DNA of 64,000 nt from Heterodontus francisci (taxonomy: Eukaryota): positions 3,472,001 through 3,536,000 of the forward strand of contig NW_027142006.1 of the NCBI RefSeq assembly GCF_036365525.1, given 5' to 3'. A program made the position numbers and the translations under genes. Below the pieces are notes generated by a model that had not been told where the DNA came from, did no database searches, and was given only the letters and a program-made list of their open reading frames with translations. Shown here one piece after another: positions 15,511 through 55,621 of the stretch (position 1 is the first letter of the stretch; each line of letters begins with the position of its first letter).

Positions 15511-15924
15511 AATGAGTCCCAGATTCAAAAAGCTACAGTGGCTGAGAATTACAACAATATTCCTACACTCACATACTGTACCAGTAACTTAAAGATACAG
15601 AATGAATCGCACACTCAAATAGCATACATGAGACTGAGATACAGAATGAGTCTACACCAACACACAGTACTGACAGATACAGACTGGATCATAAAGTCAC
15701 ATACAGCAACAGAGACCTATTAGCACAGTATGAATCAGTCACATATAGGACTAGAATATGACTGACTGGAGCATGAATCCCATACTCCCACTCAGTAACC
15801 AAGACTGACAGTTAGCCGCATATAAAGAATGATTCGCATTCTCATGTACGGGACAACAGGCTGGCTGATGTGGCACAATGGTACAATTAATGTTTGGACA
15901 AACTCAGTGCAATAATGGCTATCT

Positions 15925-21495: not shown

Positions 21496-22956
<1,461 letters not shown>

Positions 22957-22986
22957 AGCGGCCAAAATGTCATCCAATAACCCAAA

Positions 22987-23002
22987 GGCTCTTTTCAGAG
23001 CC
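22987..23002 (+). terminator. Histone 3' stem-loop (HDE-like aaagggctg downstream)
   Basis: Canonical ggctcttttcagagcc. Confidence 0.95.
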
Positions 23003-23439
23003 ACCGACAGTCTCTGTGAAAGGGCTGGTTACTGTCAGGAGGGAGTCAGTGATGGAGTTATTGTAACAGTGGATTGACCTGTTTCACATCTGTCCAGGTG
23101 TGTTTTCCGTTCCCTCTCTGGATTGCGCTCTGTTTCTCTCCTCACACATCCCCCTGTACCCACCCACCCCCAGTTAAATGAAGAACTGAACTACAGGGTG
23201 TCCATCAACAATTTAATAAATGCTGCCACCTTCAATTTCATAAATTCGGAGACCCTCCTGGTGCATTAATGATAAGTGGTTTGGCGCTGATTAATTAATT
23301 TAATAATGACAGTATCTGGGTCAATTCTGGTCTGTTTTTCATTTAGACAGTTTGAATTCTGTTCTTTTTTTCCTCCGGTGATCTGAGCGCCGCTTCTCAC
23401 TGAGAATCTGCTCATGGAACAGAGTGAGTGCAGAGTAAG

Positions 23440-27619: not shown

Positions 27620-28960
27620 GTACCGGTACAGAGGAATCCTGCACCAGAGTCTCATAGATACAGAATGTACCACACTTGTAGACAATACCAGTAGCTGAGA
27701 GATACAAAATTAATTCCACTTTAACTGACTGTCCCAGAAACAGACACATAAAAAGTGAATTGCAACACACATTAAGTACCAGAGACTGCCAAATGCAGAA
27801 TGAGCTCTGGATGTGCACATGCAGACTGTACCAGAAATTGACTAATACTGAATGGGACCCACACTCATACGTTGTACCAGAGACTAACAGCTAAAGAATA
27901 TATCCAACATTCACTTCCAGTACCAGAAAATAATATATGCATAACAGATATCACTCACATACACGAGCAGAGATTGACAGACAACAGAATGAATCCCACA
28001 ATCTCATTCAGTACCAGATACTAACAGGTACAGAATTACTCCCATACACACTGTACTAGGCACTGAAAGACATAGGAGGAATTGTACATTCACATACAAT
28101 AGCAGACACTGACAGGTACTGTAGGAGTCACATGCTCACAGTGAGTACCAGATACTGTTGAAAAGAGAATTAATCCCACACTTGCATTCATTGCAAGAGA
28201 CTGACAGATACATAAATGATATCAATACTCACATCGGAGACTGACATGCAGAACTTGAACCACACCCATACATAGTACCAAAACCTGAAAGGTATTAAAT
28301 CAATAAAACTATCAGTATCTTACACATTCAATAAAACAGTGTCAAAGACTGACAGAGGTCACTTGCATAGAATAGCAGAGATTTTCATGGACAGAATGCA
28401 TCTTATTTCACATTCAGTCTGGATATTGACCAATACACAATGAATCCTACGATCATACTCAATACCAAGTTCAGACAGACACCATATATATCCCCCACTT
28501 ATTCACAGTATCATAGATTGACAGACACAGAGTGAGTCACAAAATCAATTAATTTCAGAGACCAGCAGATAGAGAATTAATCTCACTCTCACAGAAAGAA
28601 CCAGAGACTGACAAATATACAATGAGACCCAAGCTCACATAAAGTGACAGACACTTAATTAAAACCACACACATACATAATACCTTAGACTTACACATAG
28701 AGAATGAATCAAACAATCACATTCTGACTGTAAGACTGGTGCATACAGAATGAATCACACACTTAAATTTAGTTCCAGACACTGACAGATACAGAATGAT
28801 ATCCACATTCACCCACAGTAGCAGATAAATACAGAAGCTGCCACACATTCACATACAATACTCATGAATGACATACAGAATGAATCACACAATCACATTT
28901 AGTTCCATGGACTGACACTCAAATAATCTCACACTCAGATACAGGACAACAGAGATAGAT
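27620..28960 (+). repeat. Degenerate ~46-bp satellite array
   Basis: Recurrent ccagagactgacagatacagaatgaatc variants. Confidence 0.8.
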
Positions 28961-29113
28961 TTAGAATTAAATTTGCTGTCATATAATGTACCAGAAAGTG
29001 TGACAAAATTAATCTCATACAGTACAAAAGATTGATGGAATTTGTCCCACACTCAATGTAATAGGTTTTAAGTAAGTGAAGTGGGGATGGTGGAGGGGAG
29101 GGGAGGATAGGTG

Positions 29114-29737
29114 GAGGTGGGGAAGAGAACAAAAGGGAAGGTGTGTGTTCAGGCAGGAGACAGTTGCCCACCTCCTCCTGGAATGTGTCTTTGCAAAGCA
29201 GGTGTGGAAAGAGATGCAGTGGATTTTGTTGAGATTCATCCCAAGCAGCTCTGTAACGCAAGAGTCTGTGCTCTACGGGCTGTTCCCAGAGACGCGCACC
29301 GAGACAAACATCAACTGCTGCTGGAAGACTATCAATTTGGTGAAAGACGCCCTTTGGTCTGCACAAAACTTGCTGGTCTTCCAGCGCAAAGAGTTGTCCA
29401 CCACCGAATGTTGCAGACTGGCACATTCCAAGGTCCAGTACTACGTGCTGAGGAACGCACTAAAGCTTGGGGCAGCCGCAGCAAAGGCTCAATGGGGAAA
29501 GACCAATGTGTAAGGTCCCCCCAACAAGATGAACGGAGGGGCTTGATCCATGGAAAACCCCTTGAACTGAATCTGGAAAATTTTTGTTTGCGAAAAAATG
29601 TAAAATGAAATGGAAGGGTGGTGAGGCAACTCACTCCAGTATTGAAGGAAACTGATCTCCTTTGCATTGTTTGTATTTTTGTCATGTATTTTTTACAGAT
29701 TTTAATGAATAAAATATATTTTGGAATTTTAAAAAAA
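29114..29737 (+). mobile_element. Tx1 3' fragment
   Basis: ETVAHLLLECVFAKQVW...AKAQWGKTNV*, with the same 3' UTR and A-tail as the other Tx1 copies. Followed by gtgttag (non-histone site). Confidence 0.9.
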
Positions 29738-31070
29738 GTGTTAGGGCAGGAGAGATTAACTGACAAGCAGGTCATGCGGCAAAGACAAAGGGAGAGTGCT
29801 AATGGTGCAGTGAAGGACAAAACATTAGTGTACAGACAGTGTTAATGACAGAATAATGAACAGCTCGCTCCAAAAGCACAAACTTGAAAAACCAAGATTA
29901 AGGCAGGAACATGGTAACAAAAAATTATCAATCAAAATAAAATAAAATAATAAAAAAGATCCAGCCATGCTCTGAAATTATTTTACTCAATGTTCAGTCC
30001 GGAAGGATGTTGAGTGTCTAATCAGAAAATGAGGTTCTGTTCCTGGAGCTTGCTTTACTGGAACACTGCAGCAGGCCGAGGACAGAAATGTGGGCATGAG
30101 AACAGTGTGGTGAAGTGAAGTGGCAAGCAACCGGAAGCTTGGGTTCATGCTTGCAGATTGTCCGGAGATGTTCCGCAAAGCAGTCACCCAATCTACGTTT
30201 GGTCTCCCCAATGTAGAGGTGCCGCATTGTGAGCAGCGAATACAGAAGACTAAATTGAAAGAAGTACAAGTAAATCGCTGCTTCACCTGGAAGGAGTGCT
30301 TGGGGCCTTGGATGGTGAGGAGAGAGGAGGTAAAAGGGCAGGATCTATGCCTCCTGCGATTATATGGGAAGAGGCCATGGGAAGGGGAATGCTGACAGGG
30401 CAGTGGAGGGGAAGATGTGTTTCGTAATGGCATCATGCTGGAGGTGGCAGAAATAGTGGAGGATGATCCTTTGGATGTGCAGGCAAGTCGGGTGGAATTT
30501 GGTTGCAGTTCTGGGAGGGAGGGGATGGGATGAGGGCAGAAGTGCAGGAAATAGGTCAGACACGGTTGAGGGCCCTGTCAACCACAGTGTGGGGGAATCC
30601 TCGGTTGAGGAAAAAGGAAGACATATCAGAACTGCTGTTGTCGAAGGTTGCATCATCAGAAATGATGTGTCAGAGATGGAGAAACTGGGAGAATGGAATG
30701 GAGTCCTTACAGGAAGCAGGGTGTGAGAAAGTGTAGTCAAGGTAACTGTGGGAGTCGGTGGGCTTAGAAAGAATATTAGCGGACAGCCTTAAATTCAGAG
30801 ATGGAGACAAAGAAGTCACAAAGGGAAGGGAAGTGTCGGAGATAGATCATGTGAAGGTGAGGGAAGGGTGGAAATTGGAAGCAAAGTTGATGAAGTTTTC
30901 CAGTTCCGGGCGGGAGCAGGAAATGACACTGACACAGTCATCATTCTACCGGAAAAATAGCTGGGGTGTGGGGCCCTGAGTAGGACTGGAAAAAGGAATG
31001 TTTGACATACACCACAAAAAGACAGGCATACTAGGACCCATGTGGGTAACCATGGCAACACCTTTTATGT
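29738..31070 (-). mobile_element. Degraded Penelope-like element (RT C-terminus + GIY-YIG)
   Basis: Minus-strand KGVAMVTHMGPS RT motif and LYIGETKRRLGDCFAEHL. Similar to 23861-25070. Confidence 0.82.
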
Positions 31071-31345
31071 TATTCTCTGAGTAACACACCTCCTGATTCA
31101 CCAAACCGTGTCCACCATCTACAAGGCACAAGTGAGGTTTGTAATGGAATACTCTCCACTTGCCTAGCTGAGTTCAGCTCTAACTTCACTCTGGAAGCTC
31201 GACCCCATCCAGGACAAAGTAGCTCACTTGATCAACACCCCGTCCACCACCTTAAATATTCACTCCTTCCACCACTGGTGCACAGTGGCAGCAGTGTTTA
31301 CAATCCTAGACAGCACCTTCCAAACACGTGAACTCTACCACCATT

Positions 31346-32390
31346 TTTAAAAATTCATTCATGGGATGTGGGTGTTGCTGGCTAGGCCAGCATTTATTGC
31401 CCATCCCTAATTGCCCTGGAGAAGGTGGTGGTGAGCTGCCTTCTTGAACCGCTGCAGTCCATGTGAGGTAGGTACACTCACAGTGCCGTTAGGAAGGGAG
31501 TTCCAGGGCTTTGACCCAGTGACAGTGAAGGAACGACAATATAGTTCCACATCAGGATAGTGTGTGACTTGGAGGGGAACTTGCTGGTGGTGGTGTTCCC
31601 ATGCATTTGCTGCCCTTGTACTTCTAGTTGGTATAGGTTGTGGATTTGTAAAGTGCTGTCGAAGGATCCTCGGTGCGTTGCTGCAGTGCATCTTGTAGAT
31701 GGTGCACACTGCGGCCACTGTGCGCGCTGGTGGAGGGAGTGAATGTTTGTGGATGGGGTGCCAATCAAGTGGGCTGCTTTGTCCTGCATGGTATCAAGCT
31801 TCTTGCATGTTCTTGGAGCTGCATCCATCCAGGCAAGTGGGGAGTGTTCCATCACGTTCCTGACTTGTGCCTTGTAGATGGTCGACAGGCTTTGGGGAGT
31901 CAGGAGGAGACTTACTAGTTGCAGGATTACTAGCCTGTGACCTGCTCTGGTAGCCACAGTATTTTGTGGCTACTCCAGTTCAATTTCTGGTCAATGGCAG
32001 CCCCTAGGATGTTGATAGTGGGGGATTCGGCAATGGTAATGCCATTGAATGTCAAGGGAGATGCTTAGATTCTCTCTTGTTGAAAGTGGTCATTGGATAA
32101 GTCTGGATACTGTCGAGCACTTGTTGCATTTCTATACAGACTGCTTCAGTATCTGAGGAGTCACGAATGGTGCTGAACACTGTGCAATTATCAGCCAAAA
32201 TCCCCACTTCTGACCTTATGATTGAAGAAGGTTATTGATGAAGCAGCTGAAGATGGTTGGGCCTAGGACACTACCCTGAGGAACTCCTGCAGTGATCTCC
32301 TGGAGCTCAGATGATTGACCTCCAACAACCACAACCATCTTCCTTTTTGCTAGGTATGTCTCTAACCAGCGGAGAGATATCCCCCTGATT
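31346..32390 (-). mobile_element. CR1/L2-type LINE 3' part
   Basis: Minus strand LLTPQSLSTIYKAQVRNVMEHSPLAW and a 3' tail shared with the Deu-type SINEs. Confidence 0.8.
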
Positions 32391-34496
32391 CCTTAGAAGG
32401 ACAAGAGCAGCAGACACGTGGGAATACTACAATCAGCAACCTCCCCTCCAATCCAAATCCTGACTTGGAACTATTTTGCCGTGCCTTCCCTGGGGCATAT
32501 CAAAATCCTGGAACTCCCTCCCGAATAGCACTGTGTGTGTACCTATAACATATGGACTGCAGTGGTTCAAGTAGGCAGCTCACCAAAACCAGGGCAATTA
32601 AGGATGGGCAATAAATGATGGTCTTGCCAGCGATGCTTACATCCCATGAAAAAAAATAACAAAAATAAAATGGAGTTAAAATCTCTATGAAAGAAATCTT
32701 TATAAAATTCTGCAATCAGTCCATGTGACCAGGGGATCCCCACCCCCTTCATTCCAGTTTTTACTTGCATTGATTCCACTTCATTGTCACACACGATTCT
32801 CTCATCCTCATTTCAACCCTCTTCAATAAAACCACTCACTTTCCATCAACAATTTGCAAATGGATTCATTTATGATGCTGGAACATTCCTCACACAGAAA
32901 TTATTCAACTCAGTAAAAACATTCTTACAGCTGATAACTTTGCTACCAATTGAAGGACTGTCTAATGCGGTTATCAAGTCAGAGTGAAAAGTTTATTAAA
33001 CTTGGTTCCATTCAATCCAGCTGTCATAAACTTTGAACCTTTATTCATTTTATAAACAGTATTTGAAGGGTCTCAGTAACAATGTTCAGTGTTGATGAGA
33101 GTGGGGTCTGGGTGAGAAACTGCTGAGTGTGTCAGGGTCAGGACTGAATGCAGGAAGTTCTCGAACAGTCTCTCTCTCTCTTTCTCCCTCTCTATTGCTG
33201 AAGGGATTGAGTTGATTGACAACTGGCGGCTGCTGGTATTTGAATAAATGAAGTTCCTTCCAACCATTTTTTGATTGACAGCTACACAGAACTTTTTTGT
33301 CCCAGGACACAAAAATGAACAGAAGTGGATCAGTGTAGGATGATTCTCGGTCTGTATAAAAGGGGTGTGATTTCAGCTGCCATGGTCCAGTGGTTAAAGT
33401 TTTCAACATTGAAATCCACTGGACTTATCCGAGTTTGGTTTGAGTCCTGCTCACAGAGGATCTATTCAGTGATTTTAATTATTTTTAATCTTTAATCCTC
33501 TATTTCCACAAAACGCAGGCACTGAAATAACTCATACTCCTCACCATTGCTATCCATTATACAGGTAGTGGCTGCATGGTCCAATGGAGACACACTCGGA
33601 GGGCTCTGGGAGAGGTTTCTTCTCGGGTTTTAGGACTCTTTTGGTCTACCAACAGCAACCGGATGTCTGCAGAGGAACTCGGAGTGCCAGGCCGCTCAGA
33701 GGACAGACTTCCTAGGATCAATTTTAATCAGGGGACAAAATATCCGTGGAACAGAACATCAAAGGTCCGAGGATTGAGGCTGAAATTCCCGATGTTTTGG
33801 AAGAAACCTGCAGATGTGGGACGTTAATATTTGCTCGGTGCAGATTCACTTTAGTCCGTTATTGTGTCCTGCGACAAACAAATGGCTGGCAGCTGTCAAT
33901 CCAAAAAATAAAAATCAGAAGATTCTGGCAATTTCCACCCTTACAGCTCTCAGCAGTCTTGGTTCCATCCCATCCAGTCCTAATGACTTATCAACATGAA
34001 GTACAGCCAGCCGTTCCAGTATCTCCTATTTATTAGAACGCGCTGACTGAGCTGTGTCTTCATCACTTCTGGGCAATCAGACAGTTCACCCTTCATTCTG
34101 CTCTGATTCACTTTCCCAAAGCGGATCTCCAGATTCTCAAATCTGGGGACAAGGATTTCTTATTTGCTTCATTTCAGTTTTTATCATTCTCAACTGATAA
34201 TATAATCCAAAACTCGGACAAATCCTCCACCTTGCATCGTGTCCCAGACTCAGTAGAAAGCAGCACATAGTGACATGAACACACTGACAGATACAATCCG
34301 TCACACTCTGATTCAGTGAGATTAATGTCAAGAGTGGTTTCCAGATCAAATGCAATGATGAACAAATTTCTCTCAAAGGAGGTGTGGTTGACTGAGGTAC
34401 CTTTATAGTATTTGCAGTGGATTTCTGTGCAAGAAGGGACAATCGTCAAACATCCATTCCGAAATCCTTCGCTCAGCAAAGACAGATAGAGTCCTG

Positions 34497-34718
34497 TTTT
34501 AAATAAAAACAGAAAGTGCTGGAAATATTCAGCAGGTCTGGTAGCATCTGTGCAGAGAGGAGCAGAGTTAACATTTCAGCAGTTCTGATAAAATGTCACA
34601 GACCTGAAAGGTTAACTCTGCGTCTCTGTCCACAGATGCCACCAGACCCGCTGAGTATTTCCAGTACTTTCTGTGTTCATTTCAGATTTCCAGCATCTGC
34701 AGTATTTTGCTTTTGTTA
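34497..34718. mobile_element. Short Penelope-derived element with ~80-bp inverted arms
   Basis: aaaacagaaagtgctggaaatattcagcaggtctgg...gttaac is inverted against gttaactctg...ccagacccgctgagtatttccag. The right arm matches the Penelope 3' end at 24990-25070. Second copy at 59997-60220. Confidence 0.75.
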
Positions 34719-35187
34719 CTGTCCTGTCTTATTGTGCTGCTCAATAAAGTAGTTGGAAAACCAAGTTACAGTAAGGCTTTAAGGGGATTTGAATCCAGGA
34801 TTGATCTGTTCATTAAAGAGGTGCTTCGACCAACTAAATCAAAGGGTCAAAATACAGTGTTTGAGTTTTTTGAGCTACAGATTAGTGCAGATCTTTCTAG
34901 CTGTGCTGAACATTGATTTCCATCTCCGGGTTCTTTCTGAGTCTGTGAGTTTGCAGTTCTTTGCGAGTGAGTGCCAGACATGAAGATATGTTTAGACGAT
35001 TTCTCGTAAGTCATTTGCATCTCCATATTTTTCTGAAATTTGTACAAACACATTAAATGAGGGAATCACATAAGTCACGCCGTGAAATTTCTCCACAAAA
35101 CACTGAAAGGTGACAGTGTTTATTGTGAGGGGTTTCCACTTATTCAGACACATATCTAGTAAAAGTGATCAGGACGTGATTCGCATA

Positions 35188-37479
35188 TGTAGTGTATTTG
35201 TATATTATGCTAATAATGTAATGACGTGATGATGTAATGGCGTGAATAAACATTTATTTGAACAGGCCATATTTGGTGTCCATTTCCTCTGCTGGACCCA
35301 CCTGAAAATATTAGAGAAAATGGCAACTAGGGGAAGATAAAGTCTGTAAATATAGGCTGAAAATAGCAGCAGGGACTGCAGTAAACAAGATCAGCCTGGT
35401 GACTTAGTTGCTCGGATAGTGGAGAATTTAGCTGGGTTGTGGGCAGCCTGAGCCTCAGACTGTCTCCTGAGTTGAATAGGATACCGCAGGGTCTTAGTGC
35501 TCATTGAGGAAATTTGGCTGTACCCATGGGATACAGCTGAAAGCTGGCAACGAATGAGAGGGTTTGAGCAACATTCCGTTCCAAAATTGAAAGAATAGGC
35601 ATGTTCTTAGAGTTAAGAATATTTTGGGACTGGTAGGTGAGGCGGTCAAGACTCAGAATAAGGCAATTCCTGAGCAAAAGAAAACAATTTTTCTTGTGGA
35701 AATTGGCCTGGAAGTGTATGACATGCTGACAAAGATTCCTGCTCTGAACAAAGCAAAATATGTGCCAGTCAAAACAAAATCACCAAGTTGGAGGAACATT
35801 TCAATCCTAAGCCACTAGAGATAGCAGAATGCTATAAATTTGGAACCAGAAATCAGAAAAGTAGTGAAGCAGTTGGTGAGTATATTGTGGCACTGAAGAA
35901 TTTTTATTCCGTTGCAACTTTGGCACATTCTTCGACCATGCATTTTGAGACATATTTGTGTGTGGATTTGTGAACAAAAGAATCCAATCAAAGTTACTAA
36001 ACACACAAAATCTTACATTTGAGATCGTGTGTAAGATTGCTGTTTCCATGGAGATGGCATCAAAGAATGTTAGGGAATTTTATCCCATGCTGGTAACTAG
36101 TACAGGCTTCTGTCCACTGTTAAAGTGCTTCAGCCAAGTCTAAAGTGGACAGACATAGCCAGAAGAGTGCCAATGATAGCAGTTTAGTGTTGTTATCACC
36201 ATAAGGGCAACCACACAGCACAATCATGTCAGTACAGGAATGCAAAATGTTTTAATTGTCAAGCAGAGGCCAAAGAAGGAAAGGGAACTAATTCCAGTGG
36301 TAATGGAAAACAGTGATGTTATAAGGGTGGAGTTCACAATCTTGAAGTGAATCCAGAGTGCCAAACCAAAGAGGAGCAAGGGCTTTACAGCATTTATGCC
36401 ACTAGCAATCACTCAAATGACGGAGACTTTTGTATAATGTTGTTGGTAAATAAACAGCAAATTGCTACGACCATGGATTGCTCCATCATGAATAGAGAAA
36501 TGTATGGGAGCAAAGTCAGTGATGTACCTCTAACTGAGAGCACAGCTCAATTGAAAACCTACTCTGGTGAGGTGTTAGCAATGTGTTGGCAAATGGAGTG
36601 TAATGTGCAACATAAGGGCAGGCCCCTCAAGATACCTGTTTTTTATTCATTATTTCATGGGAGGCGGGCATCACTGGCAAGGCCAGCATTTATTGCCCAT
36701 TCCTAATTGCGCTTGACAACTGAATTGCTTGCTGGGTCATTTCAGAGGACAGGTGAGAGTAAACCACATTGTTGTGGGCCAGCATCACATACAGGCCAGA
36801 CCAGGTAAGCACAGCAGATTGCCTTCTGTAAAGGGTATGAGTTAACCAGATGGGTTTTAATGAAAATCAATTATAGTTGCATGGCACCACTACTCAGATT
36901 TTATATTATTCATTAATGAATTGAATCTGAATTCCACCAGCTGCCATGGTGGGATTTAAACCCATATCCCCAGGGCATTAGTCTGAGTCGTGAGATTATC
37001 AGTTCAGTGACATTACTGCTATGCCAGCCTCTCCCCTACAAGGTAGTGAGATATGTCAACAAACCAATAATAATGGGGAAAGACTGGCTTTGAAAGCTGA
37101 AGTTAGACTGGAAGCATGTTTTTTCATGTGGTGTACCTTGGCCTGAAAATCAATGAAAAGAACTCCAGCCAGTGAAAGAGAAAATAGAGGCTATGGTCAA
37201 AGCCCCAAAGACAAAAAGATGTGTCTGAGCTTAGATCTTTTCTCGGCATGGTCCAATACTACTCACAATTTCTGCCTGAGCATGCAATGGTGTTAGCTCC
37301 ACTACATAAGTTGTTGAAGATGTGAAATGGAAATGGTCTAAAACACAAGATGCTAATGATGCATGTAAGAGAAGCTCGATCAGTGACACACTACACATTC
37401 ATTACCACACAAATGGTGAACTGAAGCTAGCTTCAAAATATGGAGTTGGAGCAGTAATCTGTCATGTTGTGGATCATGG
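35188..37479 (+). mobile_element. Decayed Ty3/Gypsy LTR retrotransposon (gag, protease, partial pol)
   Basis: gag-like HFNPKPLEIAECYKFGTRNQ...VGEYIVALK and IQSKLL...LTFE, plus RNase H-like ASKYGVGAVI. Most of RT is deleted relative to the 56062-59535 copy. Confidence 0.8.
36640..37037 (-). mobile_element. Deu-domain-like SINE nested in Gypsy
   Basis: Same family as 7611-7945. Duplicate at 57711-58100. Confidence 0.7.
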
Positions 37480-37772
37480 CCGCTGCAAAGGCTCAATGGG
37501 GAAAGAACACTGTGTAAGGTCTTCCCACCAGAGTGAACTAAAGGGCTGGACCCATGGGAAACCCCTCTGGCTGTCTACACCAACATGGGTCTGCTGTAAA
37601 ATGTACATGGCATGTAAAATGGAATGGAAGGGTTGTGAGGCAACTCACTCCTGTATCGAAGAAAACTGATTTCCTTTGCGCTTTTGGAATGTCAACTTGG
37701 TGCTGTTTTGGACTGTTTTGTAAAGCTTTTTTTCAACAGATTTTTATGAATGGAGTATACTTTTGGGAAAAA
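37480..37772 (+). mobile_element. Tx1 extreme 3' end (~290 bp) abutting the H4 start
   Basis: ccgctgcaaaggctcaatggggaaag...tgtgtaa, then the Tx1 3' UTR and a short A-tail, then gtgtctggcagagg. Confidence 0.9.
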
Positions 37773-38084
37773 GTGTCTGGCAGAGGTGAAGGATGCAACG
37801 GACCTGGCAAAGGCAGAGCAAAGCGGCACCGCACAGTGCTTCGTGATAATATCCAGGGCATCACCAAACCAGCAATCCTCCGCCTGGCTCGCCGTGGCAG
37901 GGTCAAGCGGATCTCGCGTTTGATCTATGAGGAGACTCGCGGGGTATTGAAAGGTTTCCTGGAGAATGTGATCAGGGATGCGGTCACCTACACTGAGCAC
38001 GCCAAGCGCAAGACGGTCACTGCCATGGATGTGGTGTACGCTCTGAAACGGCAGGGCCGCACTCTCTGCGGATTCGGCGGCTGA
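37773..38084 (+). pseudogene. H4: Histone H4 pseudogene; start lost at Tx1 junction
   Basis: 312 bp like intact H4, GTG in place of ATG, many substitutions ([22 protein letters not shown]...). Stem-loop at 38119-38134 has the non-canonical loop tcga. Confidence 0.92.
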
Positions 38085-38482
38085 GAAACCAGCCCCTTTC
38101 CCACAAACACACAACAAAGGCTCTTCGAAGAGCCACCCACCGCCTCACAGAGAGAGCAGTGACCTGGAAACGGGAGATGGGATAGGCTGTTCAGAACTGA
38201 CTGGAATAAATCTGTGCTGTGTTCGGGTATAAAACTGGAATCCCCGAGTTTGACATTTCATTTGCAGCAAGGATGTGCAGTGGATTTGATTTTCTAAACG
38301 GGCTGTGTAAACAGTGCCCGAGGCTCTACACTTAGTTATTTCCCCAGTCGACACATGCCCTCAGTGAAAAGCCACATCACTCCTCCAGAATCACTCATTG
38401 TTTTCAAAGAATTTCAAAATGATTTCGCTGCAATGAGGGAATCCGGGAGTTTTGCAGCAGCCGTTAAATCGGTCACTGGAAC

Positions 38483-39410
38483 CAGACTCCTGTGTTACAG
38501 AGCTGCTTGGGATAAACCTCGACATAAACCAATGCATCTCTTTCCACACCTGCTTTGCAAAGACATATTCCAGGAGGAGGTGGGCAACCGTCTCTTCCCC
38601 ACCACAGCCACCGTGGGGGCATTGCGCGGAGGGGGCGAGTCTTCGGGCGTGCAGCAAGGATCTGACGGGGAAGGCTCTTCTCACCACCAGCCAAACTACA
38701 TCTTGGTGCTTGTTTGAAAGTTCCGGTGATGAGGCATTCTGCCAAATGACTTTGGTGGTCTGCTCGGGGAACCATCCGACAGGATACCCCATCTCCTTTT
38801 CCCGTAGGGCCTTGAGAACATTCCGTGCAGACCACTGCCTGATGGATCAGTGGTCAAAGTTGTTTTCCCGCAGAAACTGCTCCACGAAGGATAGGTGGTA
38901 CAGCACGGTCCAACTACATGGAGCGTTCCGCGGCAATGTGACCAGGGCCATCCTTCGCAACACTGGGAACAGATAGAACCTCAGCACGTAGTGACACTTG
39001 CAGTTTGCATACTGGAGGTCTACACACAGCTTGATGCAGCCGCACACGAAGGTGGTCATCAGGATGAGGGCAACGTTGGGTACATTTTTCCCGCCCTTGA
39101 CCAGAGATTTGAACATCGTGTCCCTCTGGACCCAGTCCATTTTAGATCCCCAGATGAAGCGGAAAATGGCTCGGGCGACCACCACACTTGAGTGCCTCTG
39201 CTGCCTGGGATTGTCACCCCCTCTCATGCTCGCATCCTTCCTAATAGACTCAGCAAAGGGTTCAACACAGCAAACGAACAAGACAGGGGAGAGAGGACAG
39301 CCCTGTCTGACTCCAGATTGGATCAGGAAACTTTCCGATTCCCACCCATTGATTGAGACTGCGCTACTGATGTTCGTGTAGAGCAGTTTGATCCAATTAC
39401 AGATTCCCTC
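38483..39410 (-). mobile_element. Internally deleted Tx1 ORF2 fragment
   Basis: Minus-strand pieces FVCCVEPFAESIRK, AIFRFIWGSKMD, ETVAHLLLEY. Lacks the 3' end. Confidence 0.88.
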
Positions 39411-42400
39411 CCATTTTTACTCACCTTTCTCGCCAGGTACGTCGAGGTGGCCAGCACTGATGTCAAAGACCCCTTTGGGATTTGGACCAATAAGCGGCAA
39501 GTCAAGGTGACCTTGACGGTCGATGCCAATGGAGCCATCATCCACCCTCCCTCCAGCTTCGCTATCAGGGGAAGTCGAGGCTTCTTGGTCTACGCTTGGC
39601 AGCCCAAAGTTTGTAGCACCTGTGGCAAATCTGGTCACGTGGCAGCTAACTGCAGCACGGTTGTCTGCAAGAACTGCAAGAAGGAAGGCCATCAGACCAA
39701 GGACTGTAAGCAGAGTAAGTGTTGCAACCTGTGCGGTGCGGCAGGCCATCTCTACAAAACCTGCCCCAAACGCTGCCTCAGTTATGCTCAGGCGGCAAGG
39801 TCCAAGGAAAGGCCGGGAGAAGGTTCGACGAAGGCGTCCGGTGTTGGAAAGGAGACAAACAACCTTCTCTGCAGTGAGGAACTTCTACCTGAGAAGGAGA
39901 AGAAAGGGAAGGCAACTGAAACCAGCAACCCGGCACCTACCCTGCACCCGGAAACCCCTCCTCCACAGACAGAATCAATGGAGGAGGAGGCAGCAGATGG
40001 ACAAACAGGTCAGTGGCAGTTTGTCCAAAGGAAAACCACAAAGAAAAGACCTCCAAAAGCGGAACAGGCCACCACCCAAACCAGTGGCAAGAGGAGGCTA
40101 CCGTCTGAGACAGACTACAGCAGCTCCTCTTCACTGGATGAGGAAGTGCCGGAGCGACAGCACCTTCAAAAGAAGCGGCAGAACTCAAAAGGAGCTGGAA
40201 GATAAAACCCCCCAGCCCCCGGGCACTGGAAGCTGTGATGGGCCTGTCAAGCCCCAAACCCAAAGCGCCACACCTAGCGACATGGCCAACACATCCCAGC
40301 TCTGGAACACTGAGAGCAAAGACACATCTGGCGCACTTCAGCTCCGGGAAGCCGGCAGCAGTGATGTTTTCGAAAAGGAACAGAGGGGAACAGCAGAGAA
40401 CAGCCCTGCTGCCAACAAGACCCCCGCCCTCCCACCGATGTCACCTCAGTGGAAGAAACCCTGCATGAAAAACCAGGAGGGGTTTCTGAGCCCAACGAGT
40501 GTGAAACAGCTTGCGTACACTATGGGTATACAGGAACATCCTGAAGGACTGGGACTAGCAAGGACAAATGGTATGGGAAGCAACAACTAACTTTAAAAAA
40601 ATGGGTATAAGGATTGCTTCAATTAATGTGCGTAGCATTAAATCCACTATGCGATGGATTACCTCGCCAAGGTCAAAGCCGACCCCCTGTTTCTGCAGGA
40701 GTGTGGAATACCACATCTCAGCACCGACAGGCAGTGGTCGCAATGGTGGTCCCACGGGTCATCGATCTGGTCAGGGGGTTATGATTGCCATTCCTCCGGC
40801 CTGGGTCTTCTGCTGCGGGGAGGTAACTTCACCATCTCCGAAGTTAAGGAGGTGGTGGGCAGTCGCCTCCTCATCGCAGATGTAATGTACAACAATGCTT
40901 CGCTCTGGTTGATCAGCATGTATGCCCCGTTTCAATGCAGCGAACGGTTGACCGTCTTTAGAATTAGAATTAGAATTAGAACTAGAACATTACAGCGCAG
41001 TACAGGCCCTTCGGCCCTCGATGTTGCGCCGACCATCTGACCTACACTATTCCATTTTCATCCATATGTCTATCCAATGACCACTTAAATGCCCTTAAAG
41101 TTGGCGAGTCTACTACTGTTGCAGACAGGGCGTTCCACGCCCCTACTACTCTCTGCGTAAAGAAACTACCTCTGACATCTGTCCTATATCTATCACCCCT
41201 CAACTTAAAGCTATGTCCCCTCGTGTTTGCCATCATCATCCGAGGAAAAAGACTCTCAATATCCACCCTATCTAACCCTCTGATTATCTTGTATGTCTCT
41301 ATTAAGTCGCCTCTCCTCCTCCTTCTCTCTAACGAAAACAACCCCAAGTCCCTCAGCCTTTCCTCGTAAGACCTTCCTTCCATACCAGGCAACATCCTAG
41401 TAAATCTCCTCTGCACCCTTTCCAAAGCTTCCACATCCTGCCTATAATGCGGTGACCAGAATTACACGCAATACTCAAGGTGCGGCCTCACCAGAATTTT
41501 GTACAGCTGCATCATGACCTCGTGGCTCCGAAACTCGATCCCCCGACTAATAAAAGCTAACACACCATATGCCTTCTTAACAGCCCTATTAACCTGGGTA
41601 GCAACCTTCAGGGATTTATGTACCTGGACCACCAAGATCTCTCTGTACATCTACACTACCAAGAATCTTCCCATTAGCCCAGTACTCTGCATTGCTGTTA
41701 CTTCTTCCAAAGTGAATCACCTCACACTTCTCCGCATTAAACTCCATTTGCCATCTCTCAGCCCAGCTCTGCGGCCTATCTATGTCCCTCTGTACCCTAC
41801 AACACCCTTCGACACTATCCACAACTCCACCGACCTTCGTGTCATCCGCAAATTTACTAACCCACCCTTCTACACCCTCATCCAGGTCATTTATAAAAAT
41901 GACAAACAGCAGTGGCCCCAAAACAGAACCTTGCGGTACACCACTAGTAACGAAATTCCAGGATGAACATTTGCCATCAACCATTGCTGCTGGGAACGTG
42001 CAGGCCAGTCATCCTAGGCGGTGACTTCAACTGCATCATCGATGCAGCTGGGCGAACTGGCAGAGACGACAGCAAACTGGACGCTATGTCCAGATTCCTA
42101 ATAGAAACAGTAAAAGATGCAAAACTGCACGACGTCTTCAGCAAACCTGCAGACGGAGTGCAGCGTAGATAGACATGGTCAAGATTGGACGGGTCTGCCC
42201 ATTCCAGGATTGACTTCCTGTTTGTGGCCCATGCCGTCACGGTCAGATCCATTGACGTCAAGCCGGTGTTCTTGTCGAACCACTGCCTCGTAATGGCCGA
42301 CTGTCACTTACAGGACGACTAGCGGGTTGGCAGAGGGACGTGGAAGCTCAATGCTACACTGCTAACCCCAGAGAACGTTGAGGAACTTAAAAGGGATTAC

Positions 42401-45246
42401 AAAGGTTGGAGAACCGTGAAACCCCTCCTGAGTCTCCAGTTCACAGGTGGGACGCGATCAAGGAGAACATCAAGAGTTTCTTTCTCCTCAAAAGGTGTTC
42501 AGAGGGCGAGAGAGAGACAGAGGGAAATGTCCTGACTCCAGAAAAGTATGCAAAATCTGCTCCGGCTACAGTCGATGGGGGTTGAGGTCAAGGAGGACCT
42601 CCAAGAGGTGTAGAGAAAGCAGGCCTCGCTCTTTGCCACGGAGACCTCCAATATCATCTTCCGGTCCAGAGTCCACCCCATTGAGCAGGATGAGATGTGC
42701 TTGCATTACTTCTTCCAAAAGGTACACAGAGAGAGCTCTGTTATCAGCAGCCAGAAGGAAGAAGATGGCTCGGTAACATCTTCGCAGTCCGACATACTAA
42801 GGATCAGCCAATCCTTTTATGCTGGGCTGTATGACGCGAAGCCCACAGACAGAAGAGCCTCCCAGTCCTTCCTGTCATCTATCACAGAGGTCTTAGATGA
42901 CAGCAGGAGGGAGAGACTGGACAAGCCGCTAACTCGGGATGAGCTAACAAAGGCCGTCAAGTCCTTCGAGACGAATAAAACTCCCGGAAGCGATGGCTTA
43001 CCGGTTGAGCTGTATTGTGTCCTGTGGGACTGGGTTTGCCTGGACCAGCTGGAAGTATACGAGAGTATGCTCCTGGCCGGCAGCATATCAGAATCCATGA
43101 GGAAAGGCATCATCACCCTCATTGACAAGCAGAACGGGGAGAGGGCAGAAATTGGAAATTGGCAGCCCATCTCACTGCTTAATGTTGACGACAAGATTCT
43201 GTCCAAAGTCATAGCCAGTCGAGTCAAGTCTGCTCTGGAGTTGGTGATCCACCCTGATCAAACCTGTACTGCACCTGGCAGGAAGATCTCAATAGTCTCG
43301 CACTACTCAGGGATACAATCGCCTATGTACGGGACAGGAGGGTGGACACCTGCCTCATCAGCCTGGACCAGGAGAAGGTTTTTGACAGAATATCACACAC
43401 ATACAGGATGGACGTGTTTCCAAAATGGCGTTTGCGGAGGGAATCTGCAATTGGATCAAACTGCCCTACACAAACATCAGTGGCGCAGTCTCAATCAATG
43501 GGTGGGAATCGGAAAGTTTCCCGATCCAATCTGGAGTCAGACAGGGCTATCCTCTCTCCCCTGTCTTGTTTGTTTGCTGTATTGAACCATTTGCTGAGTC
43601 TATTAGGAAGAATATGAGCAGAAGAGGGGTGACAATTCCAGGCAGAGGAGGCACTCAGGTTAAAACCTCCCTCTACATGGATGACGTCGCGGTCTTCTGC
43701 TCGGACCCGCTGTCTGTGTGCAGACTGATGAGCATCTGCGACCAGTTGAAACTGACCTCGGGAGCCAAAGTTAACCACGGCAAGAGAGAGGCCATGTTCT
43801 TTGGGAACAGGGCTTACCGATCCTTTGTCCCCTTCACCGTCAGCTCAGACTACCTGAAGGTGCTGGGAATATGGTTCAGAAGGGCCGGGGTGTGCACCAA
43901 AATCTGGGAAGAGCGAGCAGCCAAGGTACAACACAAGCTGAGCATGTGGGAGAAGCGATCTCTCTCCAATGTGGGTAAGAACCTGGTCATCAGGTGCAAG
44001 GCGCTCACGTTGTTGCTGTTCATGTCGCAGGTCTGGCCCATACCCCACTCCGGCGCTGTGGCGGTCACCCGAGCCATTTTCCGCTTCATCTGGGGATCCA
44101 AAATGGACCGGGTCCGGAGGGACACGATGCTCAAACCTCTGGATAAGGGTGGGAAAAATGTACCCAACATCACCCTCATCCTGATGACTACCTTCGTGTG
44201 TGGCTGCATCAAGCTGTGTGTAGACGCAAACTCCAAGTGTCACCACGTGCTGAGGTTCTATCTGTCCCCGGTGTTGCGAAGCCTTGTAACATTGCCGCGG
44301 AATGCTCCATCCAGTTGGACTGTGTCGTTCCACCTATCCTTCGTCGAGTGGTTTCTGCGGAAAAACACTTTTGACCACCGGTCCATCAACCGGTGGTCTG
44401 CACAGAATGTCCTCAAGGCCCTACAGGAAAAGGAGATGGTGGATCCTCTTCCCCAAGCAGACCACCGAAGTCATTTCGCGGAATGCCTCATCACCAGAAC
44501 CTTCAAACAAGCACCAAGATGAAGCTTGGCTGGTGGTGAGAAGAGCCCTCCCAGTCAGATCCTTCCTGCACACCCGAAGTCTCACCCCCTCTGCACAACA
44601 CCCTCGAGGTGACTGAGGTGGGGAAGAGACAGTTGCCCACCTCCTTCAGGAATTTGTCTTTGCAAAGCAGGTGTGGAAAGAGATGCAGTGGTTTTTGTCG
44701 AACTTCATTTCAAGCAGCTCTGTAACACAGGAGTCTGTGCTCTACGGGCTGTTCCCAGGGACGCACACTGAGATAAACATCAACTGCTGCTGGAGGACTA
44801 TCAATTCGGTGAAAGACACCCGTTGTTCTGCCCGAAACCTGCTGGTCTTCCAGCACAAAGAGTTGTCCACGACCGAATGTTGCAGACTGGCACATTCCAA
44901 GGTCCAGGACTATGTGCTGAGGGACGCACTAAAGCTTGGGGCAGCAGCAGCAAATGTTCAATGGGAAAAGACCACTGTGTAAGGTCCCCCCACCAAGTTG
45001 AACGGATGGGCTGGGTCGATGGAAAACCCCTCGAAATGTATCAGGAAAATTTTCGTTTGCTGTAAAATGTATATGGCATGGAAAATGAAATGGAAGGGTT
45101 GTGAGGCAGTTCACTCCTGCAATGAAGGAAACTGACCTCCTTTGCACTGTTTGTAATTTTCGACTTGGTGCTGTTTAGAACTGTTTAGTCATGTACTTTT
45201 TACAGATTTTTATGAATAATGCATATTTTGGAAATAATAAAAAAAA
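39411..45246 (+). mobile_element. Near full-length Tx1-clade retrotransposon (ORF1 with 3 CCHC knuckles; ORF2 APE + RT), frameshifted
   Basis: ORF1 CSTCGKSGHVAANC, CKNCKKEGHQTKDC, CNLCGAAGHLYKTC. ORF2 from 40601 MGIRIASINVRS, FLQE, GGDFN, PGSDGLP, DQEKVFD, GVRQGYPLSP, YMDD. 3' UTR with A-tail. Confidence 0.93.
40959..41983 (-). mobile_element. CR1 3' fragment nested in the Tx1 endonuclease
   Basis: GVPQGSVLGPLLF...KFADDTK, RPHLEYCV, LERVQRRFTRM, with a (ttctaa)n tail at the 40959 end. Confidence 0.92.
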
Positions 45247-45420
45247 GTCCAGTAACAAGTTAAAAACCTGTTTCCATATTCCACTTTTACTGTCACAAAT
45301 TCCGGGCGCTATTTCACAAGCAGATTTAATTTGTCAATTGTTGTCAACTGTTCGAACTGGCGGTAAACAACTCTGTTCAGCAATCTATAATGGGACAAGT
45401 AACTCAAACTCCGTGTGGAA

Positions 45421-45933
45421 CAAAGAACGAAGAACAAAGAAAATTACAGAACAGGAACAGGCCCTTCGGCCCTCCAAGCCTGCGCCGATCCAGATCCTCT
45501 TTCTTAACATGTCGCCTATTTTCTAAGGGTCTGTATCTCTTTGCTTCCTGCCCATTCATGTATCTGTCTAGATACATCTTAAAAGACGCTATCGTGCCCG
45601 CGTCTACCACCTCCGCTGGCAACGCGTTCCAGGCACCCACCACCCTCTGCGTAAAGAACTTTGCACGCATATCCCCCCTAAACCTTTCCCCTCTCACTTT
45701 GAACTCGTGACCCCGAGTAATTGAATCCCCCACTCTGGGAAAAAGCTTCTTGCTATCCACCCTGTCTATACCTGTCACGATTTTGTACACCTCAATCAGG
45801 TCCCCCCTCAACCTCCGTCTTTCGAATGAAAATAATCCTAATCTACTCAACCTCTCTTCATAGCTAGCGCCCTCCATGCCAGGCAACAGCCTGGTGAACC
45901 TCCTCTGCACCCTCTCCAAAGCACCTACATCCT
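45421..45933 (-). mobile_element. Young CR1 3' fragment inserted in the H2A downstream spacer
   Basis: Nearly identical to 18710-19212. TSD tggaa. The empty site is seen at ~54310-54330. Confidence 0.92.
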
Positions 45934-46100
45934 TTGGAAGTAATAAATTATGGACAATTGGTAATTCCCCTTCACACAGGCTTCAGGGAGACAGTGAGAA
46001 GTCACTGAAATAGTTGCTTAAACATTTTAAATAGTTGCCATTCCTGTTACAAATGTTTTGGAATTAGACAGTAATCAGCCCTTTCACAGAGACTGTGGGT

Positions 46101-46116
46101 GGCTCTGAAAAGAGCC
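46101..46116 (-). terminator. Histone 3' stem-loop
   Basis: Reverse complement ggctcttttcagagcc. Confidence 0.95.
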
Positions 46117-46146
46117 TTTGGCTTATTAGATGACATTTTGGCCGCT

Positions 46147-46519
46147 TTACGTTTTCTGGGAGCTCTGAGCGCTGGTTTTTTTGGGCAGCAGCACGGCCTG
46201 GATATTAGCCAGCACTCCGCCCTGTGCAATGGTCACCCCTCCCAGCAGCTTGTTGAGCTCCGCGTTGTCGCGGACGGCCAGTTGCAGGTGTCGGGGGATG
46301 ATGCGGTTCTTCTTGTTGTCCCGGGCCGCGTTACCGGCCAGCTCGAGGATTTCAGTGGCTAGATACTCGAGCACAGCAGCCACCACCCACAGGCTCAGCA
46401 TCGTTGCCCTTTCTCAGAAGCCTGTGTACACGGCCCACTGGGAACTCCAGTCCAGCCCGGGAGGAGTGATACTTGGCCTTGGACTGAGCTTTCCCGCTGG
46501 TCTTTCCTCTTCCTGACTT
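46147..46519 (-). pseudogene. H2A: Histone H2A pseudogene; ATG destroyed by Tx1 insertion, internal frameshifting deletion
   Basis: Minus strand: A-tail then gtcaggaagaggaaagacc..., a net 17-bp deletion in the GAGAPVY region, and C-terminal half [24 protein letters not shown]...LLPKKT. Confidence 0.92.
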
Positions 46520-49150
46520 TTTTTATTTCCAAAATATACTTTATTCATAAAAATCTGTAAGAAAAAACAATACAGAACAGTTCCAAACATCATCGAGTCA
46601 GACAATACAAAGAGTGCAAAGGAGATCAGTTTCCTTCAATACAGGAGTGAATTGCCTCACAACCCTTCCATTTCATTTTACGTACCATGTACATTTTACA
46701 GCAAACAAATATTTTCCCGATAAAGTTCGAGGGGTTTTCTATGGATCCAGCCCCTCAGTTCAGCTTGGTGGGGGGACCTTACACAGTGGTGTTTCCCCAT
46801 TGAGCCTTTGCTGCGGCTGCCCCAAGCTTTAGTACGTCCCTCAGCACGTAGTCTTGGACCTTGGAATGTGCCAGTCTGCAACATTCGGTCGTGGACAACT
46901 CTTTGTGCTGGAAGACCAGCATGTTTCGGGGGGCAGACCAAATTGATAGTCCTCCAGCAGCAGTTGATGTTTATCTCTGTGTATGTCCCTGGGAACAGCC
47001 AATACAGCACAGACTCCTGTGTTACAGAGCTGCTTGGGATGAACCTCGACAAAAACCACTGCATCTCCTTTCACACCTGCTTTGCAAAGGCACATTCCAG
47101 AAGGACGTGGGCAACCATCTCTTCCCCACCGCAGCCACCTCAAGGGCATTGTGCGAAGGGTGTGAGACTTCGGGCGTGCAGGAAGGATCTGACGGGGAGG
47201 GCTCTTCTCACCACCAGCCAAGCTACACCTTGGTGCTTGTTTGAAAGTTCTGGTGATGAGGCATTCTGTCTAATGACTTTGGCAGTCTGCTTGGGGAACC
47301 ATCCAACAGGATCCACCATCTCCTTTTCCCGTAGGGCCTTGTGGACATTCCATGCAGACCACTGCCTGATGGGTTGGTGGTCAAAGGTGTTTTTCTGCAG
47401 AAATTTTCCCACGAAGGATAGGTGGTACGGCACGGCCCAATTGGATGGATTCCAATCCTTCTCAACATCGGGTACAGATAGAACCTCAGCACATAGTGAC
47501 ACTTAGTGTTTGCGTACTGGGGATCTACACACAGCTCGATGCAGCCGCACACGATGGTAGTCATCAGGATGAGGGCAATGTTGGGTACATTTTTCCCGCC
47601 CTTATCCAGAGGTTTGAACATCGTGTCCCTCCGGACCCGGTCCATTTTGCATCCCCAGATGAAGTGGAAAATGACTTGGGTGACCACCAGAGCGCAGGAG
47701 TGGGGTATGGGCTAGACCTGCGCCACATACAGCAACAACGTGAGCACCTCGCATCTGATGACCAGGTTCTTACCCATATTGGAGAGAGATCGCTGCTCCC
47801 ACATGCTCAGCTTATGTTGTACCCTGGCTACTCACTCCTCCCAGGTTTTGGTGCACGCCCCGGCCCTACCGAACCATATCCCCAGCATCTTCAGGTACTG
47901 TGACCTAATGGTGAAGGGGACAAAGAATTGGTCAGCCCAGTTCCCAAAGAACATGGCCTCGCTCTTGCCCTGGTTAACTCTGGCCCCTGAGGCCAGTTCG
48001 AACTGGTTGCAGATGCACACAGACAGCGGGTCCAAGCAGAAGACGACGACGTCATCCATGTACAGGGAGGTTTTAACCTGAGTGGCTCTGCTGTCTGGGA
48101 TTGTCACCCCTCTTATGTTCACATCCTTCCTAATATACTCAGCAAAGGGTTCAAACAGCAAACAAACAAGACCGGGGAGAGAGGACAGCCCTGTCTGACT
48201 CCAGATTGGATCAGAAAACTTTCTGATTCCCACCCATTGATTGAGACAGCGCTACTGATATTTGTGAAGTGCAGTTTGATCCAATTGCAGATTCCCACCC
48301 CAAACCCCATTTTGGAAAGCACATCCATCATGAAGGTGTGCGATATCCTGTCACAAGCCTTCTCCTGGTCCAGACTGATGAGGCAGGTGTACACCCTCCT
48401 GTCCCGTACATAGGCGATCGTATCCCTGAGTTACGTGAGACTATCAGAGATCCTCCTGCCGGGTACAGTACAGGTCTGATCAGGGTGAATCACCAACTCC
48501 AGAGCAGAATTGACTCGACTGGCTATGACTTTGGACAGCATCTTGTAGTCAGAATTAAGTAGTGAGATGGGCTGCCAATTTCTGATTCCTGCCCTCTCCC
48601 CCTTCCGCTTGGAGATGAGGGTGATGATGCCTTTCCTCATGGATTCTGACATGCTGCCGGCCAGGAGCATACTCTCGTATCCTTCCAGCAGGTCTGGGCT
48701 GATCCAGTCCCACAGGGCCGAATACAACTCAACCAGTAAGGCATCGCTTCTGGGAGTTTTACTCGTCTCAAAGGACTTGACGGCCTTTGTCAGCTTGTCC
48801 AGAGTTAGCGGCATGTCCAGTCTCTCCCTCATGCTATCATCTAAGACAGCTGTGATAGATCACAGGAAGCTCTGCTGTCTGTGCGCTTCGCGTCAGACAG
48901 CCCAGCATAAAAGGATTTGCTAATTCTTAGTATGTCGGACTGCAAAGACGTTACCGAGCCATCCTCTTCCTTCAGGCTTCTGATGAAGCTGTGTGAAGCT
49001 TTTGGAAGAGGTAGTGCAAACACATCTCATCCTGTTCGATGGAGTGGACTCTGGACCGGAAGATGATTTTGGAGGCCTCTGTGGCAAAGAGTGAGGCCTC
49101 CTGAATCTTCACCTCATGGAGGTCCTCCTTGACCTCGACCTCTATCGTCT
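46518..49150 (-). mobile_element. Tx1 5'-truncated copy (RT to 3' end) abutting the H2A start
   Basis: Minus-strand LDQEKACD, GVRQGCPLSP, YMDDVV and the C-terminal region, then a 3' UTR with aataaa and an A-tail. Confidence 0.93.
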
Positions 49151-49183
49151 GAAACACATGCTAAATGCCAGATGCTGAAAGGT

Positions 49184-53669: not shown

Positions 53670-54131
<462 letters not shown>

Positions 54132-54161
54132 AGCGGCCAAAATATCATCGAATAAACCAAA

Positions 54162-54177
54162 GGCTCTTTTCAGAGCC
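54162..54177 (+). terminator. Histone 3' stem-loop
   Basis: ggctcttttcagagcc with HDE-like aaagggctg downstream. Confidence 0.95.
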
Positions 54178-54551
54178 ACCGACAGTCTCTGTGAAAGGGC
54201 TGATTACTGTCTGATTCCAGAATGTCAGTAACAGGACCGAATCAGATTTATTTACAATGTTCAAGCAACTATTTCAGTGACTTCTCACTGTCCCCCGAAA
54301 CCCTGTCCAATTTATTACTTCCACACCGAATTTGAGTTATTTGTCCCGTTACATTTTGCCGGCAGTTACAGATGAGTAACCAAAAATATTACAGATTAAA
54401 GCTGTTCGTAAAATATGGACATAACCATCCAAAATCTTGTTTTTTATTCCGCTTTTATCAGCACAATTTCCTGGCGCTATTTTACGAACAGCTTTAAAAT
54501 GGTGCCAGGAATTTGCTGATAAAAGCGGAATATAAATGTTTTTTTAATGGC

Positions 54552-54559
<8 letters not shown>

Positions 54560-54591
<32 letters not shown>
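54560..54591. repeat. (TA)n microsatellite
   Basis: About 16 perfect TA units. Confidence 0.97.

Positions 54592-55300: not shown

Positions 55301-55621
<321 letters not shown>

Follow-up and report, generated by a model that had tools for sequence, protein, structure and literature searches.

L1/Tx1-type LINE copies joined to H2A and H4 start codons, and a loss of promoter-side DNA, in a histone cluster of Heterodontus francisci

Results

The histone cluster and its inverted arms

The window analysed here, 64,000 nucleotides of contig NW_027142006.1 of Heterodontus francisci (assembly GCF_036365525.1, positions 3,472,001–3,536,000, forward strand), is a histone cluster rich in repeats, in which each of the six histone genes is followed by a stem-loop remnant. 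The plus strand carries an H2A gene at 22569, an H4 pseudogene at 37773–38084, an H2B gene at 52488 and a further H2A gene at 53742. On the minus strand are a decayed H2A gene at 46517, which occupies the mirror position of the one at 53742, and an uninterrupted H4 paralogue (55301–55612). This last gene has one amino-acid change, Tyr-52 to Cys (Y52C, Met = 1), and a one-base change in its stem-loop, so that decay may be under way there too. A minisatellite-like family with a period of ~46 bp is found on both strands at 9060–9670, 10470–11130, 14800–15700 and 27640–28970.

Self-BLAST of the window pairs 30782–38487 (left arm) with 64000–54901 (right arm) as an inverted repeat. Next to the left H4 start, 37128–37479 corresponds to 56916–56558 (93.6%) and 37774–38487 to 55611–54901 (92.4%). 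The 3' flank of the left H4 gene (38085–38487, plus strand) contains a stem-loop remnant at 38119, and homology to the right arm stops at 38487. The original prediction called the two H4 units alleles. They lie inverted within one 64-kb sequence, 4.5–8.6% apart, and are paralogues of a single assembly rather than variants of homologous chromosomes. Beyond the inserted elements the left unit continues at 45247–46518, where the minus-strand H2A gene and its spacer mirror 53742–54550 with 8–14% divergence or more. The duplicated unit is therefore Gypsy–H4–spacer–H2A, and the decayed H2A with its inserted LINE forms a second filled/empty pair, from which the promoter is again absent. In the spacer between H2A and H4, an imperfect palindrome of ~95 bp adjoins a TA microsatellite (54431–54590); the insertion site of a near-full-length LINE copy (T44, see below) lies close to the left-unit equivalent of this palindrome.

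The filled H4 site

In the right arm, 945 bp (56557–55613, minus strand) separate the end of the Gypsy sequence common to both arms from the H4 ATG. They comprise the 3' part of Gypsy RNase H, spacer, a CT-rich tract and, judged by its motifs, the putative H4 promoter. The window contains no second copy of them. In the left arm their place is occupied by 293 bp (37480–37772, plus strand), the 3' end of an L1/Tx1-type LINE (T37) with the last 12 codons of ORF2, the stop codon, the 3' UTR and an A5 tail. The predicted filled/empty structure is thus real, as the comparison of the arms by self-BLAST demonstrates.

The left-arm sequence upstream of the junction (37479/37480, plus strand) is a decayed Gypsy-type gag-pol remnant (about 35100 to 37479, plus strand). 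It mirrors the right-arm Gypsy element, the ORF of which matches Pfam RT_RNaseH (E = 3.5e-21), and ends inside RNase H; the tblastn match of the right RNase H ORF to the left arm stops at 37489. The G at 37479 can be assigned to either side, which gives 1 bp of microhomology. In the reads, loose ends of other Tx1 copies start before 37479. No target site duplication (TSD) was found, in agreement with the prediction: the 16 nt that follow the tail do not recur near the 5' junction, even with up to three mismatches allowed. The site therefore combines the two signs of an insertion-mediated deletion, absence of a TSD and loss of upstream DNA in comparison with the empty site. A second left-arm loss, on which the original prediction was silent, lies 350 bp upstream of the Gypsy/Tx1 junction at 37126–37128 (plus strand), where 705 bp of Gypsy reverse transcriptase (right arm 57621–56917) are missing, with one extra base and no microhomology.

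Codon 1 of the left H4 gene reads GTG and not ATG, and the cut site is for this reason uncertain by 2 bp. Eleven further left-specific replacements fall in 226 nonsynonymous sites (4.9%). CpG decay was ruled out as the cause of the H4 divergence, as only 2 of 19 differences are of CpG type. An open frame of 176 codons (37554–38084, plus strand) starts at an ATG in the Tx1 3' UTR and runs in frame into the dead H4 gene, adding 73 N-terminal residues; judged from the sequence, it is probably due to chance.

The LINE family and its copies

Five copies of the LINE family with an intact 3' end are present in the window, all with A tails, together with one (T38) that lacks the 3' end. T22 (21497–22956 including H2A, plus strand) has an internal deletion near 21525, and its A tail is joined to H2A at the start-codon G (22569). 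T46 (46518–49151, or 46147–49151 with H2A, minus strand) is joined to the decayed H2A gene at the same base. T29 (29145–29753, plus strand) is the only one of the five with a TSD, which is 16 bp long (29145–29160 and 29738–29753, 14/16 identical). Allowing up to three mismatches, the 3' flank of T29 recurs once in the window, exactly at the 5' junction of this copy, and 14/16 was reached in 301 of 100,000 shuffles. The family is thus capable of normal insertion. The other four (T22, T37, T44 and T46) have neither a TSD nor, at any place in the window, an upstream half-site; frequent upstream deletion on insertion could thus be a trait of the family.

T38 (38483–39412, minus strand) has lost its last ~500 bp, shows 5 bp of microhomology with the H4 flank and has an internal deletion of ~400 bp at 39186; jumps of the reverse transcriptase could have produced the internal deletions of T22 and T38. 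T44 (39413–45246, plus strand) lies head to head with T38 and is a near-full-length, decayed Tx1-type copy which is interrupted by a CR1-type element (about 41041–41984). It retains part of ORF1, the endonuclease (a motif near 41984, read by eye) and the reverse transcriptase (RVT_1, E = 7.5e-15). Twin priming as the origin of the T38/T44 pair was ruled out, since T38 repeats sequence held by T44 at 85–92% identity.

Full-length relatives of the LINE protein contain PF03372 and PF00078 in four of four cases and PF13966, a zinc finger, in two of four. T37 itself keeps 12 codons; on the domains of its sister copy T44 and of these relatives, the family belongs to the L1/Tx1 group of non-LTR retrotransposons. 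The name Tx1 follows the original prediction and the character of the ORF2 C-terminus; membership of the Tx1 clade proper is putative, and none of the 4 + 49 homologues of the protein carries a Tx1 label. The nearest named relatives are from sharks, rays and a chimaera. A motif scan of metagenomes for relatives gave no match; four viral matches of 12 residues and six metagenome matches at 27% identity were taken as chance.

T37 has 73–80% identity to the four other intact copies. It is 17–22% distant from them, while these differ by 10–15% from each other, and the loose-end consensus of the reads at 37585 matches a diagnostic 3' UTR segment of T37 and not that of the other window copies. T37 therefore derives from a second, separate subfamily, and the H4 hit is an event distinct from the H2A hits. 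Their independence had been predicted on other grounds; it is the subfamily difference that upholds it. The same difference rules out recombination of an H2A-linked Tx1 copy onto H4 via the common gene start. T22 and T46 share 5/10 and 7/10 informative sites and have 12–25 private changes each per ~500 bp, so that the H2A insertions may represent one event or two. Altogether the hits at histone starts represent two or three independent events. As to the Tx1–H2A unit at 21497–23036, homology to other H2A units ends ~30 bp past the stem-loop and neither poly-A nor a TSD was seen; 3' transduction is possible.

Insertion at histone start codons

GT follows each of the five intact 3' ends. Three of these ends lie in sense at an H2A or H4 start codon, and the two genes open with the same first bases. 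At the left H4 gene the A-tailed LINE 3' end joins at most 2 bp from the start codon, so that the predicted target-primed insertion at the H4 start is upheld. When T22 and T46 are taken as a single event, a local model that ignores chromatin and selection gives a probability of 3e-6 for at least two start-codon hits among four events if all GT sites are eligible, and of 7e-5 if eligibility is limited to sites of a five-base motif, which was derived from the same copies. Within the window, none of the three histone-linked copies has kept the promoter.

Read support and copy number

Of eight sequencing runs listed, four contain the stretch, all of them from one sample (S1). Three of these, as contig runs, and one raw-read run from another individual (X5) were used over 36900–37900. 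The contig runs may stem from the source of the assembly, and their support is therefore not independent; 24 pieces were listed out of about 25,900, and contigs lose rare variants. The Tx1/H4 junction is bridged fully in all three contig runs (37694–37878 or 37694–37857; depth 153, 144 and 186). The Gypsy/Tx1 junction is spanned by a 123-bp contig (37450–37572, one other letter) with a depth of 181 in X1 and 194.5 in X4, none being listed for X2. This contig has 30 letters to the left of the junction, one letter below the 31-letter bridging rule. Both junctions thus have support from read contigs.

The depth ratios of the Tx1/H4 to the Gypsy/Tx1 contigs are 0.84 and 0.96. As the former are no deeper than the latter, no surplus of copies with another 5' end is visible. 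A paralogue with a longer Tx1 copy and an intact promoter, which had been named beforehand as evidence for a later deletion, was not visible in S1 with contigs that drop rare variants, and the junction contig is unbroken; the intermediate of a later deletion is accordingly unobserved.

The junction contigs have a depth of 144–195, against 6–15 (medians 9.6–12.2) in 16 listed contigs of diverged Gypsy or Tx1 copies. The ratio is 12–20, or up to 31 if the single-copy depth is ~6. By this rough measure, contig depth suggests that the promoterless H4 unit has been amplified in the array to ~12–30 near-identical copies; the dead unit would then be a higher-order repeat of the histone cluster. An assembly artefact is unlikely given the junction contigs at this depth, even from a sample that is possibly the assembly source. 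For the ORF2 end of the LINE, summed contig depth is ~46,000 times background (a rough figure), so that most copies of the family must lie elsewhere. A 364-deep contig (36963–37122) was considered as common to both arms and dropped, as the arms differ at three sites within it.

In the X5 individual, 13 of 137 reads at 37799 show the letter of the Tx1-linked H4 contig, a hint that the left-type H4 unit is present there too. Depth in X5 is below 3 over 37410–37477, and among the reads shown none lies over 37479.

Age of the insertion and of the arms

Of the read-variant positions over 36900–37900, 40 were listed and 159 more exist. At least 17 of the 40 fall in T37, at least 12 of them with 95% or more of the depth on the other letter, and in 16 of the 17 at least two of three window copies agree with the other letter of the reads. 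Private change in T37 thus affects at least 12–17 sites in 293 bp, which is at least 4–6%. This agrees in age with the H4 decay, which argues that the insertion killed the gene; from these sequence comparisons, inactivation of the left H4 by the insertion is probable.

The Gypsy blocks differ by 4.5–4.8% in total between the arms. If both arms changed at equal rates, the insertion is older than the arm split (Fisher p = 0.0004) and the predicted order, insertion after the duplication, fails; placing nearly all of the differences on the left arm removes the conflict (p = 0.5) and makes the order compatible with the data. All eight polarisable Gypsy sites (of 16 differences) are left-derived, in a list which holds only sites where the left arm differs and to which right-derived changes are invisible. 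Insertion after the duplication is thus plausible but loose. Divergence between the arms is patchy, 1–14% per window of comparison, and this pattern suggests conversion between them.

Other rearrangements of the arms

The 7.7-kb arm pair contains, in addition to the 705-bp deletion, the loss of the T38 3' end at 38487 and two inversions. The T38 loss must be secondary, since insertion starts from the 3' end. One inversion (31345–31698, 353 bp) distinguishes the arms, and either may be the changed one. The other (32869–34036, 1168 bp) is only 3.0% diverged, against 8.6% and 4.8% in the sequences on either side; in the left arm a little sequence is missing at each of its breakpoints.

Discussion

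A possible start-codon target for a Tx1-type LINE

Target preference is common in the Tx1 clade and extends to U2 and 5S genes, microsatellites and other transposons (PMC4494074, PMC5340908). Examples are Keno in U2 snRNA genes, Tx1 of Xenopus (Tx1D), Kibi and Koshi in microsatellites and crocodilian Tx1-Mar (PMC4494074), as well as Mutsu, which targets 5S rRNA genes (PMC5340908). The shark family resembles these LINEs as an element with endonuclease, reverse transcriptase, zinc finger and A tail which has inserted repeatedly at one position of multicopy genes and destroyed the copy hit. It differs from the known members in hitting protein-coding core histone genes, at their start codon, and in reaching two of them, H2A and H4, through one common motif. 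It is also very abundant and not confined to the target, two of the five copies being off target, and its place in the Tx1 clade is putative.

Kojima's working threshold for target specificity is that more than 20% of the copies genome-wide are flanked by one target (PMC4494074). Within the window three of five copies are so flanked, which exceeds this value, but the window is itself a histone cluster and the family is very abundant. Since two of the five copies lie elsewhere in addition, the family is fairly described as having a preference, for sequence or for chromatin, with histone starts as a hotspot, and not strict specificity. Like R1 and R2 in rDNA, the family occurs in a tandem multigene array, with variable 5' junctions and upstream deletions and with identical junctions multiplied through array turnover (PMC2718515). 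It belongs to another clade with another target, and R1 and R2 are strictly specific whereas the H2A/H4 LINE shows a preference.

In a literature search that covered few subscription journals and not Repbase Reports, no account of a Tx1-type element inserted at the start codon of a histone gene came to light. Histone H2B has reportedly been named as a Tx1 target. PMC6136364 describes short pieces of LTR elements from histone clones of fish, as well as Keno in U2, but yielded no LINE insertion at histone starts, and PMC4455052 yielded nothing on Tx1-type insertion at such sites.

Was the 945-bp loss part of the insertion?

Deletion of upstream DNA is a standard outcome of LINE insertion (PMC2881922, PMC2718515), and the original prediction attributed the 945-bp loss to the insertion itself. 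This part was not borne out: the 1 bp of microhomology is uninformative, the family makes TSDs and the arm is otherwise rearranged. Timing cannot be read from the junction, since microhomology of 0–2 bp is usual at LINE 5' junctions (PMC3287187) and later end-joining deletions look alike, those at SVA elements having 0–7 bp of microhomology and sizes of 113–4980 bp (PMC3362811). We lean towards a later deletion, after the insertion. The likelihoods given here to the three possible origins of the deletion are our judgement and were not computed.

The setting would be a multi-copy cartilaginous-fish histone cluster and an abundant L1/Tx1-type LINE whose endonuclease, as we infer, cuts preferentially ahead of GT(C/G)(T/C), a motif found where H4 and H2A share their start. 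In a first step, target-primed reverse transcription would have placed the element in sense on the start codon of one H4 paralogue, probably with a normal duplication of ~16 bp and with a longer 5' part. A later end-joining deletion, from Gypsy RNase H to the last ORF2 codons, would then have removed the promoter, the upstream copy of the duplication and the 5' part of the element, and the dead H4 unit would have been amplified with the array to roughly 12–30 copies. The arm rearrangements that insertion leaves unexplained favour such a later deletion, as do the TSD of T29 and, unless they are reverse-transcriptase jumps, the internal deletions of T22 and T38. So does the rarity of long target-site truncations of ZfL2-2, found in 0/25 insertions in wild-type DT40 cells versus 5/25 in Ku70-null cells, figures which come from an L2 element and thus from another family (PMC2666801). 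The left H4 resembles recombination-associated deletions at SVA elements, which have breakpoints in the element and in unrelated flank, 0–7 bp of microhomology and sizes of 0.1–5 kb (PMC3362811), with the difference that the undeleted ancestral state is unobserved here.

Loss during insertion is possible, though we give it less weight. One target-primed event would have sufficed if the upstream end had been cut or resected 945 bp away and joined to the 293-nt cDNA, a long target-site truncation. The absence of a TSD, the 1-bp microhomology and the intact A-tailed 3' end are what it predicts, all detectable S1 copies have the same junction (ratios 0.84 and 0.96), and the upstream half-site is absent in all three histone-linked and in four of the five intact copies. 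L1-linked target deletions range from 1 bp to over 11 kb (PMC3287187), and truncated R2 copies are tied more often to upstream deletions (PMC2718515). The likeness extends to the L1, SVA and ZfL2-2 cases, with a 5'-truncated copy, an intact 3' end, no TSD, upstream DNA missing in comparison with an empty site and 0–2 bp of microhomology (PMC2881922, PMC3287187, PMC3362811, PMC2666801). In those cases, however, the comparison is with a pre-insertion allele or a close ortholog; at the left H4 it is with an old paralogue, ~5% diverged from a left arm that has undergone further deletions, and simultaneity of insertion and deletion therefore cannot be shown. The uniform junction is likewise what a deletion preceding amplification of the unit gives. 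The DT40 result (PMC2666801) makes the prior low, T29 documents that the family makes TSDs, the neighbourhood has an unrelated 705-bp deletion at a distance of 350 bp and a further junction 1 kb downstream, and no feature of the junction ties the loss to the insertion.

Improbable, in our estimate, is a transplant, in which a Tx1–H4 cassette from another H4 paralogue was copied in by recombination or conversion, with homology at its 3' end and a join lacking homology at its 5' end, 37479 being a rearrangement breakpoint. It could account for a divergence between the arms of 8–14% in the first 200 bp of H4 and the proximal 3' flank, against 4–5% in the flanking Gypsy and the distal flank, for the 8–14% difference of the left H2A and spacer, and for a decay of T37 and H4 that exceeds half the arm distance (p = 0.0004). 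Yet divergence is patchy (1–11% per 250 bp) in the plainly collinear Gypsy block too, the age conflict vanishes if the left-derived state of the 8/8 polarisable Gypsy differences (8 of 16) is general, and no donor is visible among the S1 contigs. That Tx1 and H4 together reached a new site by 3' transduction is ruled out by right-arm synteny on both sides.

Implications

Deletion by LINE insertion is a known process, its tie to the insertion is not established here, and alone it would matter little; the case cautions against dating a deletion from an empty/filled pair of paralogues when the arm is rearranged. The start-codon target is the more interesting and better lead. A sense insertion at the ATG with a TSD places the element under the histone promoter, and so promoter loss, at whichever time it occurred, may let histone-linked copies persist.

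More speculatively, and with considerable doubt on our part, a LINE lineage of cartilaginous fish may home to core histone starts, two of its subfamilies recognising the start that H2A and H4 have in common, inserting in sense and borrowing S-phase promoter expression; copies that keep the promoter would be purged or lose it, as all three copies here would have done, and promoterless remnants would spread with the array. If true, start-codon homing would amount to the capture of promoters from multicopy genes that code for proteins, a counterpart of R2 in rDNA. Should the preference hold genome-wide, the starts of histone H2A and H4 would join the known targets of Tx1-type elements, the family would be a source of histone pseudogenes in shark arrays, and its endonuclease would have a testable sequence preference.
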